Source of the DNA: a virus
Taxonomy: Duplodnaviria > Heunggongvirae > Uroviricota > Caudoviricetes
Length of the DNA: 32,559 bases
Strand: one strand, 5' to 3'
IMG/VR virus record: IMGVR_UViG_2675903654_000020
Span: 1-32,559 of that record
Under the pieces are notes generated by a model. The model searched no databases. It had not been told where the DNA came from and saw only the letters and a program-made list of their open reading frames with translations. This document shows positions 931 to 10,928 of the stretch, in pieces (position 1 is the stretch's first letter; the number at the start of each line of letters is the position of its first letter). Made by a program: the position numbers and the translations under genes.

Positions 931-1234
931 AATTAGAGAAATACCAGTAATACGTGATGAATATGGCTGCTGGACGCATCCTGAGTATGAAAAATTCTGT
1001 GATGGTAGAGAACATATTTCAACGGAAGAGTTTAACGCATGGATGGAGGAAAATAATCTTCAATGGACCATCAGAACTATGGATGAAGATGATTTTAATC
1101 TGGACGCAGATGGTCCCGATATTGCCTCCTGGAAACCGGAGCGCCCGGAAGGTGAAGGCTGGTTCATTGGTTCCATTCATGACACTGAAGATGGTCCTGT
1201 TTGTGTATGGCTAAGAAATAAGGCTGAAGCATAA
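923..1234 (+). CDS. hypothetical acidic phage protein
   Basis: ATG 923 with GGGAGA RBS, overlapping previous stop; 103 aa ORF. Confidence 0.5.
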   Translation: MNEIREIPVIRDEYGCWTHPEYEKFCDGREHISTEEFNAWMEENNLQWTIRTMDEDDFNLDADGPDIASWKPERPEGEGWFIGSIHDTEDGPVCVWLRNKAEA

Positions 1235-1363
1235 AGGGGATAAACCACCTGTCAACAAAACACTGAAAATTTAAATCAGAAGTGAATTTTATTAAATCCT
1301 TAACCGGAGGGATCCCAGCACCCTCAAAATATCACGAGACCGCCCGAAAAGGGCGGTGATGAA

Positions 1364-1504
1364 ATGCGAAAATTTAAAATAATTATCGAGACTGGAATAG
1401 CTTGTGAAAATTTCAAGGATGTATTTGAAGTGGATGATGATCTGACACCAGATGAAATTCATGACGAATACTGCAATTACTCATATCACGAAATAAAAGA
1501 CTAA
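1364..1504 (+). CDS. small ORF (46 aa), hypothetical
   Basis: ATG 1364 just after a GC hairpin (1339-1357); below the ORF-track length cutoff; AT-rich moron region. Confidence 0.2.
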   Translation: MRKFKIIIETGIACENFKDVFEVDDDLTPDEIHDEYCNYSYHEIKD

Positions 1505-1517
1505 GAGGAAGAATGAA

Positions 1518-1628
1518 ATGGCTTATTTTAGCTCCACTAAATATAGCGTCATTTTTGGAGAATGGCATGAACTGTTAATGGACTATGCAGAGTTACGTGG
1601 TAGAAGTGTTGCCGATGACGGAACATAA
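1518..1628 (+). CDS. small ORF (36 aa), hypothetical
   Basis: ATG 1518 with AAGAGGA RBS 8 nt upstream. Confidence 0.2.
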   Translation: MAYFSSTKYSVIFGEWHELLMDYAELRGRSVADDGT

Positions 1629-1721
1629 CGTGGTGTGAAGTTGCATAAGAAACTACTTTAATCGTCCGAAAAGAACATCGTTCTTAACGGCCAAGCAATA
1701 GAGAGTGGTGGTTATAATGAC

Positions 1722-1749
1722 CCCAACCCCGTATAATAAGGGGGTTGGG
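1722..1749 (-). terminator. GC-rich hairpin immediately downstream of the phosphatase gene (9-bp stem CCCAACCCC/GGGGTTGGG, no clear U-tract)
   Basis: Perfect inverted repeat 1722-1730 / 1741-1749 with 10-nt loop; sits about 45 bp past the stop of the minus-strand operon. Confidence 0.3.
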
Positions 1750-1793
1750 ATTAGTGTGGATAAATTAGAATCAATGTTTTTGATATCTAAAAA

Positions 1794-2510
1794 TTAGATT
1801 ACTTTTACGCCTATAAAGGTGTAATCATCCATTATGTTTTTCTCAATCCTTTTTCTTAAACTGTTCGCAAAAGACGTCGGTGAGAGCATTGTTTTCTCAG
1901 AAAACCTTGGTCTGACATCCCAATGCTTATAAGCACCATCGGACATTGCATAAATTTGAAGAGAACCATTAAAAATTAGTTGATTAATCGGAAAAGACAT
2001 TAATTCAAAATTCAGCTCTGTTGTATTTGATAAAGCATTTGTTAGGATTGAAGATAAACGCTCTTTATGATTTCTTAAATTGCGCAATTTATGCTCACCA
2101 GAATCAAGAAGTTCTTGATACCTCGTTTGATCAGTAGTTAACTGATTTAATTTGTTGTTTTTATTAAAGTATACACGGCAATCACCGGAATGGCCAATTA
2201 ACACTTCATTTTTTTTGATATGAACAATTGTTAATGTTGTGGCAGTGCTAATATCTAAATTATCAATTTCTTTTTTAGCCGAATGAAATGCACTTTCAAT
2301 TGAGAAAAAGGAAGTGTCTAGCGCGTGTTTAATACCACGAATGGCAGCATGAGACGCAAGCATTGAATTTTCAGAGGAACCAACGCCATCAGCTACTGCA
2401 AAGACAATGTTAAAATCGCTATCAAAAGATGGCGGTAAATAAAAGTCTTCATTTTCTTTTTTTTGGGGTTGTTTTAGGCTAAAACAAGCCATTTCAATTA
2501 TGTTCTTCAT
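1794..2510 (-). CDS. PP2C-family Ser/Thr protein phosphatase (238 aa)
   Basis: PP2C-like motifs: VADGVGS metal-binding Asp/Gly motif, GHSGDCRVY, MSDGAY, C-terminal DD; ATG with GAGGT RBS; overlaps kinase stop by 17 bp; AT-rich codon usage. Confidence 0.75.
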   Translation of the reverse strand: MKNIIEMACFSLKQPQKKENEDFYLPPSFDSDFNIVFAVADGVGSSENSMLASHAAIRGIKHALDTSFFSIESAFHSAKKEIDNLDISTATTLTIVHIKKNEVLIGHSGDCRVYFNKNNKLNQLTTDQTRYQELLDSGEHKLRNLRNHKERLSSILTNALSNTTELNFELMSFPINQLIFNGSLQIYAMSDGAYKHWDVRPRFSEKTMLSPTSFANSLRKRIEKNIMDDYTFIGVKVI

Positions 2511-3288
2511 TATTTACCTCCCCCATCACTTTTAAAAAATCTTCCAATAACTCCTGTGCGCTCTGATATCGTTCTTCAGGCCAATGGGCGCAACATTTAG
2601 CAATCAATCTTCTTAATTTTTCACTTCTTTCTGTTGGATATATATCAGTGATAATTTTGCCTATAGCGAATATGTCGCTTTGGAAAGAAAAAAGACCGCT
2701 CTCATGTATTTCAGGTGCTCGATATCCGTCTGTACCCATGTGATTGGGCTTAAATTTTGTTTTGACTTCAGCCCGTAGGGTATCTCTATCTTTTACCAGG
2801 CCAAAATCAGATATCTTATATTTCCCATCGGCGTAATAAAGGATGTTTCCTGGTTTTAAATCACGATGTATGTAGTTGTTTTCATGTATGGTGATAATTC
2901 CTTTTAAAATCTGAATGACAGCAGACTTCCTCTCTGCGTCATTCATTCCATTGTTGATGGCTTCATATAAGTTACATTCTGCCAGCTCCATGACAAAATA
3001 AGGTTTATCACCATTTGTATTAAACAAAACTATTGGTGCTATTGAATCATAGTTTATTCTATTGAGTTTGCATTGTGTTTTGATCTCAACTAAAAAACGC
3101 TGTCTTAAATCAGCCAGCTCTTTTATGGCTGTGTTGTCAAAGTCCGGGCAAGGTGAAAAGTATTTGCGAGCATATGTGGTCACGTTGGTCTGGGCTAAAT
3201 TATAGACTTCAACCTTATATACTTCGCCAAACCCCCCTCGTCCTAAACTGCGACCATCTTTAAGTAAATAATTACCGCACCGATCCAC
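2494..3288 (-). CDS. Hanks-type (eukaryotic-like) Ser/Thr protein kinase, kinase domain only (264 aa)
   Basis: Gly-rich loop GRGGFGEV, conserved Lys in ARK, catalytic loop HRDLKPGN, DFG (SDFGL), APE (YRAPE); GTG start with GGGGG RBS; AT-rich. Confidence 0.8.
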   Translation of the reverse strand: MDRCGNYLLKDGRSLGRGGFGEVYKVEVYNLAQTNVTTYARKYFSPCPDFDNTAIKELADLRQRFLVEIKTQCKLNRINYDSIAPIVLFNTNGDKPYFVMELAECNLYEAINNGMNDAERKSAVIQILKGIITIHENNYIHRDLKPGNILYYADGKYKISDFGLVKDRDTLRAEVKTKFKPNHMGTDGYRAPEIHESGLFSFQSDIFAIGKIITDIYPTERSEKLRRLIAKCCAHWPEERYQSAQELLEDFLKVMGEVNNEEHN

Positions 3289-3584
3289 GGCGCCCCCCTA
3301 ACTCTAAGTAATGGATTGATAAGACTGGAAAAACATATATATCTCCTTTTATACACGTTTGCTATTTTTATTGCAATGCTCCACCTGTGGAGGACCAGGA
3401 AGGGCGATATTCTGATGAGTCTTTAACTGATTGAATTCGCTCCGATGCGGGACTTCCCACATCGGGAGAACATTACCACTAGGGGTAAAAACGATTTGCG
3501 GGAAAAGGATAGTTAAGTAGAATTGCTGCGGGTGCTTGAGGCTATCTGTCTCAGGCATGCCACCAAAGGCAGATAGAGAAAAGC

Positions 3585-3650
3585 CCCAGTTAACATTACG
3601 CGTCCTGCAAGACGCTTAACATTAATCTGAGGCCAATTTCATGCCAGACA
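3585..3650 (-). ncRNA. predicted Sok-like antisense RNA of the hok locus (position approximate)
   Basis: Inferred from Hok/Sok family architecture (antisense RNA overlapping the mok start region); boundaries not resolved from sequence. Confidence 0.25.
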
Positions 3651-3853
3651 CATGTAGGTTAGCCTCTTACGTGCCGAAAGGCAAGGAGAAGCAGGCTATG
3701 AAGCAGCAAAAGGCGATGTTAATCGCCCTGATCGTCATCTGTTTAACCGTCATAGTGACGGCACTGGTAACGAGGAAAGACCTCTGCGAGGTACGAATCC
3801 GAACCGGCCAGACGGAGGTCGCTGTCTTCACAGCTTACGAACCTGAGGAGTAA
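3641..3853 (+). CDS. Mok-like overlapping reading frame of the hok locus
   Basis: ATG 3641 in frame with hok and ending at the same stop, as in hok/mok loci. Confidence 0.4.
   Translation: MPDTCRLASYVPKGKEKQAMKQQKAMLIALIVICLTVIVTALVTRKDLCEVRIRTGQTEVAVFTAYEPEE
3698..3853 (+). CDS. hokD: Hok-family type I toxin (51 aa), HokD/RelF-like
   Basis: Protein MKQQKAMLIALIVICLTVIVTALVTRKDLCEVRIRTGQTEVAVFTAYEPEE matches my recollection of HokD; single TM helix; leader homologous to hok mRNA; intrinsic terminator downstream. Confidence 0.8.
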   Translation: MKQQKAMLIALIVICLTVIVTALVTRKDLCEVRIRTGQTEVAVFTAYEPEE

Positions 3854-3921
3854 GAGACCCGGCGGGGGAGAAATCCCTCGCCACCTCTGATGTGTCAGGC
3901 ATCCTCAACGCACCCGCACTA

Positions 3922-3945
3922 AACCCGCTTCGGCGGGTTTTTTGT
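3922..3945 (+). terminator. Rho-independent terminator at the hok mRNA 3' end
   Basis: Stem CCCGC-TTCG-GCGGG followed by a run of 7 T. Confidence 0.7.
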
Positions 3946-4128
3946 TGCGCGCTGAATACGCAGTGTGAAAAATAACCATATATTTGATTATATACACAAC
4001 AAAAAATAAAAGTCATTGTACCTGCACATTAAATAATCAAATATACGGCGTGAAATAAATATTTTTCAGATTAATATTTTTGTCTCTATGTGGATATAAC
4101 CGTTTGTACTTATAAATCTGGAGGCATC

Positions 4129-5853: not shown

Positions 5854-5879
5854 CTCAATCTGTTATCCGGGGCTATATT
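5850..5879 (+). promoter_or_regulatory. candidate late promoter pR' (TTGACT -35, 18-bp spacer, TATATT -10)
   Basis: -35 TTGACT at 5850-5855 overlapping the Q stop codon, -10 TATATT at 5874-5879. Confidence 0.5.
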
Positions 5880-5940
5880 CCTCACGCGCCAGCAAAATCT
5901 GGCGTCGGGATTGGCGTCCTGGATAGAGACCGCGACAGAT

Positions 5941-5963
5941 ACACGCCGCGAGCGTGTTTTTTA
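5941..5963 (+). terminator. intrinsic terminator downstream of the candidate late promoter (tR'-like)
   Basis: Stem ACACGC / GCGTGT with 5-nt loop followed by TTTTTT. Confidence 0.55.
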
Positions 5964-6123
5964 TTGTCGTATGCACGCGCACATCTGAATTATGGTGGGC
6001 TGTGTGGGGGCGGAGAGATCCGCGCCGGTCGGTTTCCCGGTTACGCCAACCCTGCACAGTTCACCACCAGACGATTGGCGTCGTCGGTGGTGAGTTATTA
6101 AGAAACCACCAGAGGGCGTCATT

Positions 6124-6735
6124 ATGACAACTCAAATTTCTGTTGAAACTCTCTCCCCTATCACCCATAACCAGATTCCTGTTATTACCACCGAACTTTT
6201 GGCGCAGCTTTACGGCACTGAGCCGGTGCGTATTCGCCAGAATCATCATGAGAACAAAGCACGCTTCGTTGAAGGGAAACACTTTTTCAAAGTTGTTGGT
6301 AATGACCTTAAAGAATTGCGGGTAGCTTTAAACTACTCACAAAATTTGCGGGTTACTTTAAGTAACTCACAAAATTTGCAACCATCTTTAAGAGGGTTAC
6401 AAATTTCCCCGAAAGCCCGCTCCCTTATCCTCTGGACAGAACGAGGCGCAGCCCGTCACGCCAAAATGCTCGAAACCGATCAGGCGTGGGATGTGTTCGA
6501 AAAACTGGAAGACTGCTATTTCAGACAAAAGGATCTGTCAGCGCCAGCTTCATGCCAGAAAAGTTACGACACGCGAGTTCTCTGTTATCAGCGAGGCGGT
6601 GTCACTGTTTCCACAATTCAGTTGCGGGATGATGATATTGTTATTTCCCTTGAGTCATGGCTGGAACTGGCGAGAGCCAATGGTTGGTTTGTTGTTCGCA
6701 GAGATAAACTGGTGGAAAGGCTGATGCAGCTTTAA
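6124..6735 (+). CDS. ORF6N-domain (Bro-N/antirepressor-like) protein
   Basis: N-terminal ORF6N-like region (IPVITTELLAQLYGTEPVRIRQNHHENKARFVEGKHFFKV) and conserved LILWTERGAARHAKMLETDQAWDVFEKLE segment; ATG with AGAGGG RBS. Confidence 0.65.
   Translation: MTTQISVETLSPITHNQIPVITTELLAQLYGTEPVRIRQNHHENKARFVEGKHFFKVVGNDLKELRVALNYSQNLRVTLSNSQNLQPSLRGLQISPKARSLILWTERGAARHAKMLETDQAWDVFEKLEDCYFRQKDLSAPASCQKSYDTRVLCYQRGGVTVSTIQLRDDDIVISLESWLELARANGWFVVRRDKLVERLMQL
6318..6377 (+). repeat. two tandem 30-bp units (25/30 identical) inside the ORF6N gene, with a degenerate third copy to about 6406
   Basis: Units 6318-6347 and 6348-6377; each contains a near-palindrome (for example GTTAC-TTTAA-GTAAC); in frame, encoding a 10-aa repeat. 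Confidence 0.6.
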
Positions 6736-9559: not shown

Positions 9560-10928
9560 TCCGGCTTTACGTAGTTTCTGGACTACGCGGGCACGTAACA
9601 AAGTGCTTTATGGTGGCCGGTCATCGTCAAAATCATGGGATGCCGCTGGCATTGCCATATTTCTGTCGAATAAATACACCCTGCGTTTTTGTTGTGCCCG
9701 TCAGATCCAGAACAAAATCGAAGAGTCGGTGTATACCCTGCTCAAAATTCAGATAGACAGGTTTGGCCTGCGGCACCGTTTCCGTATTCTGAACAACAAA
9801 ATCATTAACCGGGTTACTGGCTCGGAATTTGTTTTTTATGGATTATGGCGCAACATCGAAGAAATTAAGTCACTGGAGGGGATCGATGTGTTGTGGCTGG
9901 AAGAAGCCCACGCACTGACGGAATACCAGTGGAAAATTCTGGAGCCAACGATCCGTAAAGAGGGGTCGGAATGCTGGTTCATATTCAACCCCGGACTTGT
10001 TACTGATTTCGTCTGGCGCAACTTCGTTGTTGATCCGCCCGAAGGCACTCTCATCCGCAAAATTAACTATGACGAAAATCCGTTTCTGTCTGACACCATG
10101 CTTAAGGTTATCGACGCGGCGCGACGCCGTGATCCGGATGGTTTTAAACATGTGTATGAGGGCGTTCCGGAGTCTGATGATGATGCGGCAATCATCAAAC
10201 TGTCCTGGATAGAAGCCGCAGTGGATGCGCACAAAACGTTAAATTTCGAACCCAGTGGAAGAAAGCGTATTGGCTTTGACGTGGCTGACAGTGGTACAGA
10301 TAAGTGCGCTAACGTTTACCGTCACGGATCCGTTGTTTTCTGGGCCGACGAATGGAAGGCCAAAGAAGATGAATTACTGAAGAGCTGCCAGCGTACTTAT
10401 CAGGCGGCGCTGGAGCGTGAAGCAGATATTGTTTACGACTCTATCGGTGTTGGTGCGTCTGCCGGTGCTAAATTCTCTGAAATTAACGCTGACCGGAAGA
10501 GCGAGAATGCATACGCGAGACGAGTGAATTACCAGAGGTTTAACGCCGGTGCTGGTGTGCATGAGCCAGATGACGAATACAACGGCATCCCCAACAAAGA
10601 CTTTTTCGCAAATCTTAAGGCTCAGGCATGGTGGCTGGTGGCTGACCGTTTCAGAAATACGTTTAACGCCATTAACAACGGAGAACAGTATCCTGTGGAT
10701 GAGCTGATCAGCATAGATTCTAGTTGTCCGTTGCTTGAAAAGCTGAAACTGGAACTGACAACACCTCATCGCGATTTTGACCGTAACGGACGTGTGATGG
10801 TCGAAAGTAAAAAAGACCTCGCAAAACGCGAGATACCGTCACCAAACGTTGCTGACGCATTCATTATGGCCTTCGCGCCAATTGATACATCGCTGGATAT
10901 CTGGGAACAGCTGGGGAGACAGGCCTGA
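9501..10928 (+). CDS. terminase large subunit
   Basis: 476-503 aa ORF after terS with ATPase then nuclease-like organisation; start uncertain (in-frame ATGs at 9501, 9507, 9525; the track start at 9417 is upstream). Confidence 0.8.
   Translation: MAMESVTSMTSTLTSKPTLNPALRSFWTTRARNKVLYGGRSSSKSWDAAGIAIFLSNKYTLRFCCARQIQNKIEESVYTLLKIQIDRFGLRHRFRILNNKIINRVTGSEFVFYGLWRNIEEIKSLEGIDVLWLEEAHALTEYQWKILEPTIRKEGSECWFIFNPGLVTDFVWRNFVVDPPEGTLIRKINYDENPFLSDTMLKVIDAARRRDPDGFKHVYEGVPESDDDAAIIKLSWIEAAVDAHKTLNFEPSGRKRIGFDVADSGTDKCANVYRHGSVVFWADEWKAKEDELLKSCQRTYQAALEREADIVYDSIGVGASAGAKFSEINADRKSENAYARRVNYQRFNAGAGVHEPDDEYNGIPNKDFFANLKAQAWWLVADRFRNTFNAINNGEQYPVDELISIDSSCPLLEKLKLELTTPHRDFDRNGRVMVESKKDLAKREIPSPNVADAFIMAFAPIDTSLDIWEQLGRQA

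Follow-up and report, generated by a model that had tools for sequence, protein, structure and literature searches.

The closest functional precedent for a mobile operon that joins a Hanks-type Ser/Thr kinase to a PP2C phosphatase is KKP (PfkA/PfkB/PfpC), a kinase–kinase–phosphatase toxin–antitoxin (TA) and anti-phage module encoded by several prophages, among them Pf6 (Guo et al. 2024; PMC11341870). A KKP locus is defined as a PP2C gene followed by two Pkinase genes, each 900–1300 bp long. One kinase is PfkA-like with a cold-shock domain (CSD), the other is PfkB-like with an FHA domain, and both domains are needed for toxicity. The PP2C protein serves as antitoxin to two kinases that are toxic together, and Gp59 of phage T4 inhibits the phosphatase. 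KKP also steers Pf lysogeny through phosphorylation of MvaU, a host protein of the H-NS family (PMC11341870). Here we describe a two-gene kinase–phosphatase cassette in an E. coli prophage of the Caudoviricetes, IMG/VR record IMGVR_UViG_2675903654_000020 (positions 1 to 32,559; this whole stretch of 32,559 nucleotides is referred to as the window). Like KKP, the cassette is an operon borne by prophages and other mobile genetic elements (MGEs) that combines a Hanks-type Ser/Thr kinase with a PP2C phosphatase. Unlike the KKP triplet, it has one 795-bp kinase gene followed by a 717-bp PP2C gene, the opposite gene order, and unlike the KKP kinases, its kinase has neither a CSD nor an FHA domain by Pfam.

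That a prophage module of kinase and PP2C can serve as a TA and defense system is a concept already published for KKP, and the pair is therefore not a new category; what is new is the minimal version with two genes. A first-pass annotation of the window had called the pair undescribed. This holds insofar as its RefSeq names are generic and the pair is absent from the literature searched; it does not hold for the concept, or for the proteins as families, since PHROGs families exist for both. In the portions of the literature covered by full-text searches, including portions of the DefensePredictor and Vassallo papers, the two-gene pair was neither described nor tested. The features of the cassette in the window are:

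2494–3288, minus strand: kinase open reading frame (ORF), 264 amino acids (aa), 795 bp, GTG start
1794–2510, minus strand: phosphatase ORF, 238 aa, 717 bp, ATG start
1796–3381, minus strand: minimal mobile cassette, comprising the promoter region and the kinase and phosphatase genes
3348–3376, minus strand: putative sigma-70 promoter, read by eye, with -35 box TTGCAA (3376–3371), 17-nt spacer and -10 box TATAAA (3353–3348)
3293–3299, minus strand: Shine-Dalgarno-like AGGGGGG, 4 nt ahead of the kinase GTG
2517–2524, minus strand: strong Shine-Dalgarno sequence GGGGGAGG for the phosphatase, within the kinase 3' end and 6 nt ahead of the ATG
1720–1751, minus strand: 11-bp G+C-rich hairpin, 43 nt past the phosphatase stop (-26.1 kcal/mol, z = -3.9 versus shuffles)

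The upstream gene encodes a protein in which Pfam recognized kinase families (Pkinase, 9.1e-32, 111 bits) and no other domain across its 264 aa; it also matches phrog_2361 (6.7e-55). All Hanks subdomain signatures were found, comprising the G-loop, the VAIK Lys, the alphaC Glu, HRDxKxxN, DFG, APE, the subdomain IX Asp, and the subdomain XI Arg. The corresponding residues (G18, G21, K42, E68, H141-R142-D143, N148, D161-F162-G163, P192-E193, D205, and R240) are invariant in a 38-sequence family alignment, and the HRDLKPGN and GTDGYRAPE loops are the Ser/Thr versions. The protein is a member of the Hanks-type (eukaryotic-like) family and, as its motifs indicate, a catalytic-domain-only RD-type Ser/Thr kinase without a sensor or localization domain. 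Phosphorylation of the activation loop, which contains the almost invariant T177, is likely for a kinase of the RD type. The AlphaFold2 model has a bilobal fold (pLDDT 89.2) with disorder only at the activation loop (174–178).

Members of the kinase family are 250–265 aa long, and the edge of the family is sharp, with a step in E-value from 1e-34 to 1e-24. The closest kinases outside it are 440 aa long, about 30% identical, and have no adjacent PP2C gene (metagenome contigs L179 and L180). They are surrounded by genes for a DNA methylase, HNH_2, CTD10/MC6/MC7/DUF2326, DUF4365, and SIR2_2 proteins, and these solitary-kinase neighborhoods are, by predicted gene content, defense-island-like.

The downstream gene encodes a protein whose sole Pfam domain is PP2C_2 (2e-10). 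It also matches the Stp1/IreP model (1.3e-19) and phrog_5650 (1.1e-32). Invariant residues in the family alignment are D22, D41-G42, G109-D110, D191-G192, and D228-D229; motifs I, II, VIII, and XI retain their metal-coordinating aspartates, and the PPM beta-sandwich fold was found as well. The protein belongs to the PP2C/PPM family of phosphatases and consists of the catalytic domain only. Its AlphaFold model (pLDDT 93.3) matches PstP, MspP, tPphA, and Stp1 along its entire length in Foldseek (TM about 0.75; about 0.76 for PstP and MspP, and 0.76–0.77 for PstP 1txo), and its profile matches PstP, tPphA, and Stp1 at 1e-19 to 1e-15. Judged from alignments and models, both enzymes look catalytically competent. 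The calls made at first pass agree with these results: the two overlapping minus-strand ORFs are exactly as claimed, every quoted kinase and phosphatase motif falls on invariant columns of the family alignments, careful alignment revealed no loss of catalytic residues, and structure prediction, which had been proposed as a check, gave confident models for both proteins.

An additional observation concerns the PHROGs matches themselves. The phosphatase aligns to positions 273–517 of the 565-position phrog_5650 and the kinase to positions 7–270 of the 415-position phrog_2361, which hints at fused or read-through kinase–phosphatase ORFs in some phage records.

Homologous loci were surveyed from both genes. 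At least about 100 kinase clusters and at least 88 phosphatase clusters were collected, and diverse members were aligned. A phosphatase-profile scan of IMG/VR identified 129 viral contigs, of which 80 were retrieved, and nine genome loci were added. Of these 89 loci, 87 were found via the phosphatase and two via a DNA match to the window. The kinase gene is directly upstream on the same strand in every one (89/89), with a gap of -28 to +7 nt where both genes are intact and a mode of -4 (an ATGA overlap). In the window the two genes share 17 nt (2494–2510), which implies translational coupling. A reciprocal scan with the kinase profile identified 108 contigs and 78 new loci. Both genes are intact in 71 of the 78, and a PP2C gene follows the kinase in all 76 that could be evaluated; no kinase without a phosphatase was found among the kinase-anchored loci having downstream sequence. 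Distant phosphatase homologs with 37–50% identity (from Vibrio, Acinetobacter, another Escherichia coli locus, and Yersinia) also have a kinase of 250–263 aa immediately upstream (4/4).

The two genes have diverged together. Pairwise identities of the kinase and the phosphatase correlate across 69 unique pairs (r = 0.87), which gives no sign of partner swapping. Values of dN/dS are 0.07–0.13 for both genes, whether calculated between two E. coli alleles or against a homolog on IMG/VR viral contig L017, and as estimated from these comparisons both are under strong purifying selection and are not chance ORFs. Taken from gene order and co-divergence, the pair is an obligate, co-inherited mobile unit, in keeping with the antagonistic pair suggested at first pass, and the survey of homologous pairs proposed there found the same order, kinase then phosphatase, at accessory sites of diverse mobile elements.

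Broken copies are few. A truncated kinase with an intact phosphatase was found in six viral contigs, and the reverse in one (L102). This asymmetry would fit a TA-like pair but is suggestive only. In L102 the phosphatase frame is broken by two homopolymer deletions that are typical of sequencing error, both A8 tracts being shortened to A7 (at about 3825 and 4072). The corresponding tracts are the only two A8 runs of the 32.5-kb window (2209–2216 and 2457–2464, minus strand), and both lie within the phosphatase gene. Phase variation of the phosphatase through these homopolymers was considered and rejected: two or more A8 tracts arise in 29% of dinucleotide shuffles of the gene (P = 0.29), and the tracts occur only in the E. 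coli alleles. Because composition suffices, the tracts are so confined, and sequencing error is the simpler explanation, the A8-to-A7 lesions were read as likely such errors.

The boundaries of the cassette were delimited by comparison with related sequences. Homology to the closest syntenic prophages, with a backbone about 97% identical, ends at 1356/1366 and restarts at 3482/3507. The 81%-identical homolog on L017 shares only 1796–3381, that is, the two genes and 93 nt upstream, and this homology runs from the putative -35 box to the phosphatase stop codon. As delimited in this way, the cassette is an autonomous unit that appears to carry its own promoter. The promoter-like boxes and their spacing are kept in L017 and in a second homologous locus (L002), and the sequence further upstream diverges; a promoter function for 3348–3376 is inferred from this conservation. 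Scans for canonical promoters and terminators found no convincing sites for the kinase–phosphatase operon, and the consensus scan missed the putative promoter because its -10 box lacks the final T. The GTG start of the kinase (3286–3288) is kept in all 11 non-redundant clade-A loci with 60–99% identity, despite unrelated upstream DNA (loci homologous to the window: L002, L003, L017, and L020–L028). More distant kinases start with ATG, and the phosphatase starts with ATG in 58/58. The hairpin at 1720–1751 may act as a 3' end or stabilizer, as suggested by its folding energy. It is not a canonical intrinsic terminator, as it has no U-tract, and the terminator scan also passed over it.

We searched complete genomes to determine where the cassette occurs. 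It is present in 33 of 5426 complete E. coli genomes (0.6%), always on the chromosome, always in a prophage, and with generic names. Two E. coli alleles were distinguished, one with about 98–100% identity to the window (4 genomes) and one with about 92% identity (29 genomes). Carriers of the 92% allele include O103:H2 12009, O145:H28, O45:H2, O121, some O157:H7, and porcine enterotoxigenic E. coli. In the window, GC content is 0.33–0.38 over about 1400–3300, compared with about 0.50 in the flanks, and the first-pass annotation had correctly marked this as an AT-rich island. It had also read the cassette as accessory cargo and placed relBE at the same position in Qin; both points agree with the variation seen between the replication genes and hokD, where prophages that are about 97% identical differ and where the following was seen in the window and in syntenic E. 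coli prophages:

1357–3481, either strand: variable AT-rich island of the window, standing in for other cargo of syntenic prophages
K-12 Qin slot: relBE (relB-relE) directly upstream of hokD, preceded by flxA/ydfV
RM10740 and O111:H8 strain slot: a "sce7726 family" protein and a "beta family" protein, the latter matching PD-Lambda-2_C over its full length (1.3e-41)
Rac-like prophage slot: a KilA-N protein matching BstA (3.2e-21)
YDC107 and PEC178 slot: small nin-type genes

As a separate observation, the RM10740/O111:H8 cargo (L091 6043–7678; L092 5364–6999) is a convergent pair in which the sce7726 protein matches the PADLOC model "cll" (2.4e-28). It lacks other PD-lambda-2 components and may be a distinct two-gene system.

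Outside the E. coli clade, the cassette lies between Q and the lysis genes in the inducible phage phiES15 and in Yersinia prophages, and between Rz and the small terminase in phage Flotzy. Among about 65 loci, upstream neighbors include Q antiterminators (8), Rz (7), cI-type repressors (3), N (3), and P4 Psu (1), and downstream neighbors include the small terminase (7), antirepressors (4), holins (4), integrases (2), and SieB (1). These positions are standard accessory (moron) and defense hotspots of temperate phages. The kinase and phosphatase genes of the window are antisense to the flanking plus-strand phage genes; this placement, emphasized at first pass, applies to the window and the E. 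coli clade, the only clade consistently antisense to its neighbors, and elsewhere the cassette is mostly co-oriented. The pair is also carried by a Vibrio integrative mobilizable element and by Acinetobacter plasmids (14–19 kb), where it is directly downstream of full-length Septu PtuA/PtuB genes (3.2e-127 and 1.3e-63).

Two of these loci carry further systems. On the non-mobilizable Acinetobacter baumannii plasmid plas3_LRT (14.2 kb; L178 2750–6544), Septu and the pair are co-oriented and followed by a DUF1643 gene, an arrangement that, on predicted gene content, is a miniature defense island. A Yersinia pseudotuberculosis prophage (L009) that carries the cassette between Q and holin also has a HicA/HicB pair (10216–10850) between its small and large terminase regions.

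Kinship with described systems was examined for each in turn. There was no second kinase among the 80+ loci surveyed. The PP2C–kinase–kinase triplet of the P2-like Klebsiella phage Kp4865-2 was used as an architecture-matched surrogate; it is not a published KKP, and Pfam detected no CSD or FHA in it. Its kinases have 30% and 26% identity to the cassette kinase over the core only, and the phosphatases align with an hhalign probability of 87% over 104 columns. Kinship with KKP was rejected because similarity to this triplet is at the level of domains only.

PD-T4-6 (Vassallo et al. 2022) and Stk2 (Depardieu et al. 2016) are single-gene Ser/Thr-kinase defenses with extra C-terminal regions. The PADLOC models for both match the cassette kinase, which, unlike either, always occurs with a phosphatase. 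The best PD-T4-6 model (PDLC04047) is matched at positions 16–202 of 327 with 120 bits, versus 111 bits for the generic Pfam Pkinase, and the Stk2 model at positions 163–362 of 500 only. Membership in PD-T4-6 or mad6 was rejected because matches are confined to the core and because solitary kinases with no relation to the family reach equal or better scores. Present defense finders would call the kinase PD-T4-6-like from this core and overlook the obligate phosphatase, for which PADLOC gave no TerY-P match at E <= 0.01.

The TerY-P triad consists of the vWA protein TerY, a PP2C phosphatase, and a Ser/Thr kinase (YegL/YegK(PphC)/YegI in E. coli), and it is said to have been listed as a defense system by Gao and coworkers in 2020. 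Like the cassette, it links a Hanks-type kinase and PP2C in a conflict-system context. The triad needs its third gene, TerY, whereas the cassette has no conserved third gene and its neighbors vary; no vWA family was found among about 136 of them. Stk of the Stx phage 933W is a tyrosine kinase that is not known to come with a phosphatase partner; it reportedly excludes HK97, a finding of Friedman and coworkers in 2011. Stk and the cassette kinase both occupy a lambdoid prophage accessory slot and are both candidate exclusion functions, but the HRDLKPGN and GTxxYxAPE motifs of the cassette kinase are of the Ser/Thr type, unlike those of Stk. A tblastn search with the kinase against 50,697 phage records, including 933W, returned no Stx phage at E <= 1e-5. 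Kinship with 933W Stk, which the first-pass annotation had invoked, was rejected on this result.

By sequence and structure, the cassette is best matched by the Stk1/Stp1 and PknB/PstP housekeeping pairs, with which it has its catalytic chemistry in common. Kinases of the Stk1/PknB type are membrane-anchored, carry PASTA sensors, and belong to the core chromosome, whereas the cassette pair is minimal, mobile, and rare. Scores to the Stk1 PASTA kinase and Stp1/IreP models are far under the equivalog cut-offs (94 versus 450 bits and 71 versus 230 bits).

We tentatively propose, largely by analogy to KKP, that the cassette is a TA-like switch for abortive infection or exclusion, with a sensor-less kinase kept in check by the phosphatase. 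In a resting lysogen the phosphatase would keep the kinase off, probably by dephosphorylating the activation loop (T177), and it may also keep the cellular targets of the kinase unphosphorylated. An excess of phosphatase in the E. coli clade would be favored by start and Shine-Dalgarno strengths, as the phosphatase combines an ATG with a strong Shine-Dalgarno sequence and the kinase has a conserved GTG. The trigger could be a protein of the infecting phage that inhibits the phosphatase, as in KKP; it could equally well lie in cassette loss or in a shutdown of gene expression in the host. The kinase would then autoactivate and phosphorylate many host and/or phage proteins. The outcome could be growth arrest, abortive infection, exclusion of the incoming phage, or post-segregational stabilization of the element, and overall the cassette would work as a two-gene, type VII-like phosphorylation TA/defense switch.

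Several lines of evidence point in this direction. In type VII TA systems, the antitoxin silences its toxin through enzymatic post-translational modification; as read from the enzyme pairing, the cassette would fit this type, and so would its obligate linkage, its translational coupling, and the asymmetric decay. Catalytic competence, purifying selection, the autonomy of the unit, the accessory and defense hotspots it occupies, the defense-island-like surroundings of the next-closest kinases, and the KKP precedent also speak for the proposal. Weaker indicators are the start codons, the interchange of the slot with TA/defense cargo together with Septu adjacency, the decay asymmetry, and carriage on small plasmids, on which addiction modules are common.

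Other results weigh against a TA or defense function. The likeness to a KKP-type triplet is generic, and a toxin-first gene order is atypical for TA loci as well as opposite to that of KKP. Of the PADLOC matches, which were to be checked according to the first-pass annotation, PD-T4-6, mad6, and Stk2 were indeed recovered with the kinase but cover its catalytic core only, and the only defense-model match of the phosphatase is the candidate PDC-M21C (1e-3). The decay asymmetry is drawn from few, partly related contigs, and the cassette is rare in E. coli (33/5426 complete genomes). It is co-oriented with both flanks, in late or early operons, in 35 of the 60 loci that could be evaluated; with such a placement, as in phiES15 next to Q and the lysis genes, it may be expressed mainly in lytic growth.

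A more specific version of the TA/defense proposal is somewhat more doubtful. It holds that the cassette would be a minimal type VII-like TA/abortive-infection system, evolutionarily independent of KKP and widespread among plasmids, integrative elements, and temperate phages of Gammaproteobacteria, with a kinase checked only by PP2C and with the phosphatase, or the kinase-to-phosphatase ratio, sensing attack. If the cassette works as proposed, it would be the simplest known kinase-based immunity or addiction architecture in bacteria, made up of a single kinase domain and a single phosphatase domain with nothing added to either, and a tractable model for infection sensing without a dedicated sensor domain and for which substrates need phosphorylation to stop a phage. 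It would also be a new defense or exclusion determinant in prophages of several lineages of Shiga-toxin-producing E. coli (STEC), with carriers that include prophages of STEC O103, O145, O45, O121, and some O157. The same determinant would be present in elements of Vibrio, Yersinia, Klebsiella, and Acinetobacter, which bears on phage therapy and prophage competition.

A lysogenic-conversion or regulatory module is an unlikely but reasonable alternative, and it is not mutually exclusive with the TA/defense proposal. The pair would set the phosphorylation of particular regulators of the host or the prophage (nucleoid proteins or repressors, for example) and tune prophage induction or host physiology without a toxic or abortive output. 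KKP governs Pf lysogeny through a host H-NS-family protein (PMC11341870), some cassettes adjoin cI/N immunity genes, and others occupy lysogenic-conversion sites such as Q–holin, where stx sits. A balanced kinase and phosphatase is also the standard design of a reversible regulator, and the best matches, Stk1/Stp1 and PknB/PstP, are of this kind. Neither protein, however, has a sensor, DNA-binding, or targeting domain. The cassette spans Acinetobacter, Vibrio, and E. coli and occurs in phages, plasmids, and integrative elements, a range of hosts and elements that argues against a host-specific regulatory target, and it co-localizes with Septu and swaps with TA/defense cargo.

The co-orientation with neighboring phage operons in 35/60 loci, often just after Q or Rz in the late transcript, could instead indicate a lytic-cycle tool for host takeover or counter-defense, which we consider improbable. 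The kinase would phosphorylate host defense systems or RNA polymerase, like T7 gp0.7, and the phosphatase would limit or time its action. There is a precedent for counter-defense, since pervasive phosphorylation by the T7 kinase reportedly disarms the defenses of bacteria (bioRxiv 10.1101/2024.12.20.629319). A late-operon position, however, is too late for takeover or counter-defense. In the E. coli clade, the cassette runs against the phage operons and carries a conserved putative promoter of its own, and small non-phage plasmids and an integrative mobilizable element harbor the pair too. We know of no takeover kinase that comes with a dedicated phosphatase, which likewise speaks against this function. 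Finally, a displaced housekeeping pair of the Stk1/Stp1 or PknB/PstP type, or a functionless decaying remnant, is highly improbable and effectively refuted by the distribution and selection data, for although the best curated-model matches are the Stk1 PASTA kinase and Stp1/IreP and the RefSeq names are generic, scores are far under the equivalog cut-offs, no PASTA or transmembrane region is present, the cassette is in 0.6% of complete E. coli genomes and always in a prophage, purifying selection is strong, and the catalytic residues are all invariant.

Two other features of the window adjoin the cassette or lie within its island:

1364–1504, plus strand: DUF7167-like small ORF, inside the island; part of the phage backbone and not of the cassette
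3530–3853, plus strand: hok/sok type I TA locus, a neighbor of the cassette only and divergent from the kinase operon

The DUF7167 gene is retained without the cassette in prophage YDC107. A hok toxin gene had been noted beside the pair at first pass, and hokD together with a sok element is indeed directly adjacent. The sok match (Rfam RF01794, 118 bits) covers 3530–3703, and the hokD coding sequence covers 3698–3853, with its annotation taken from the 99.7%-identical E423 locus. A permissive Rfam scan of 1200–4100 gave no match in the untranslated regions of the cassette.

Further small-RNA matches were found downstream of hokD. Directly after it is a weak second isrK-like match (3862–3943, plus strand; 30.6 bits, under the gathering score) that overlaps a clean terminator hairpin (3921–3940). 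At 5873–6071 on the plus strand, Rfam matches for isrK (75.5 bits), C4 antisense RNA (66.7 bits), and c4 a1/b1 target sites (50.5 bits) occur in tandem between a Q-like DUF1133 gene and an ORF6N/antirepressor-like ORF (6124–6735, plus strand). The arrangement over 5873–6735 is reminiscent of an antirepressor control unit, of the P1/P7 C4–ant or the Gifsy IsrK type, in a lambdoid prophage.

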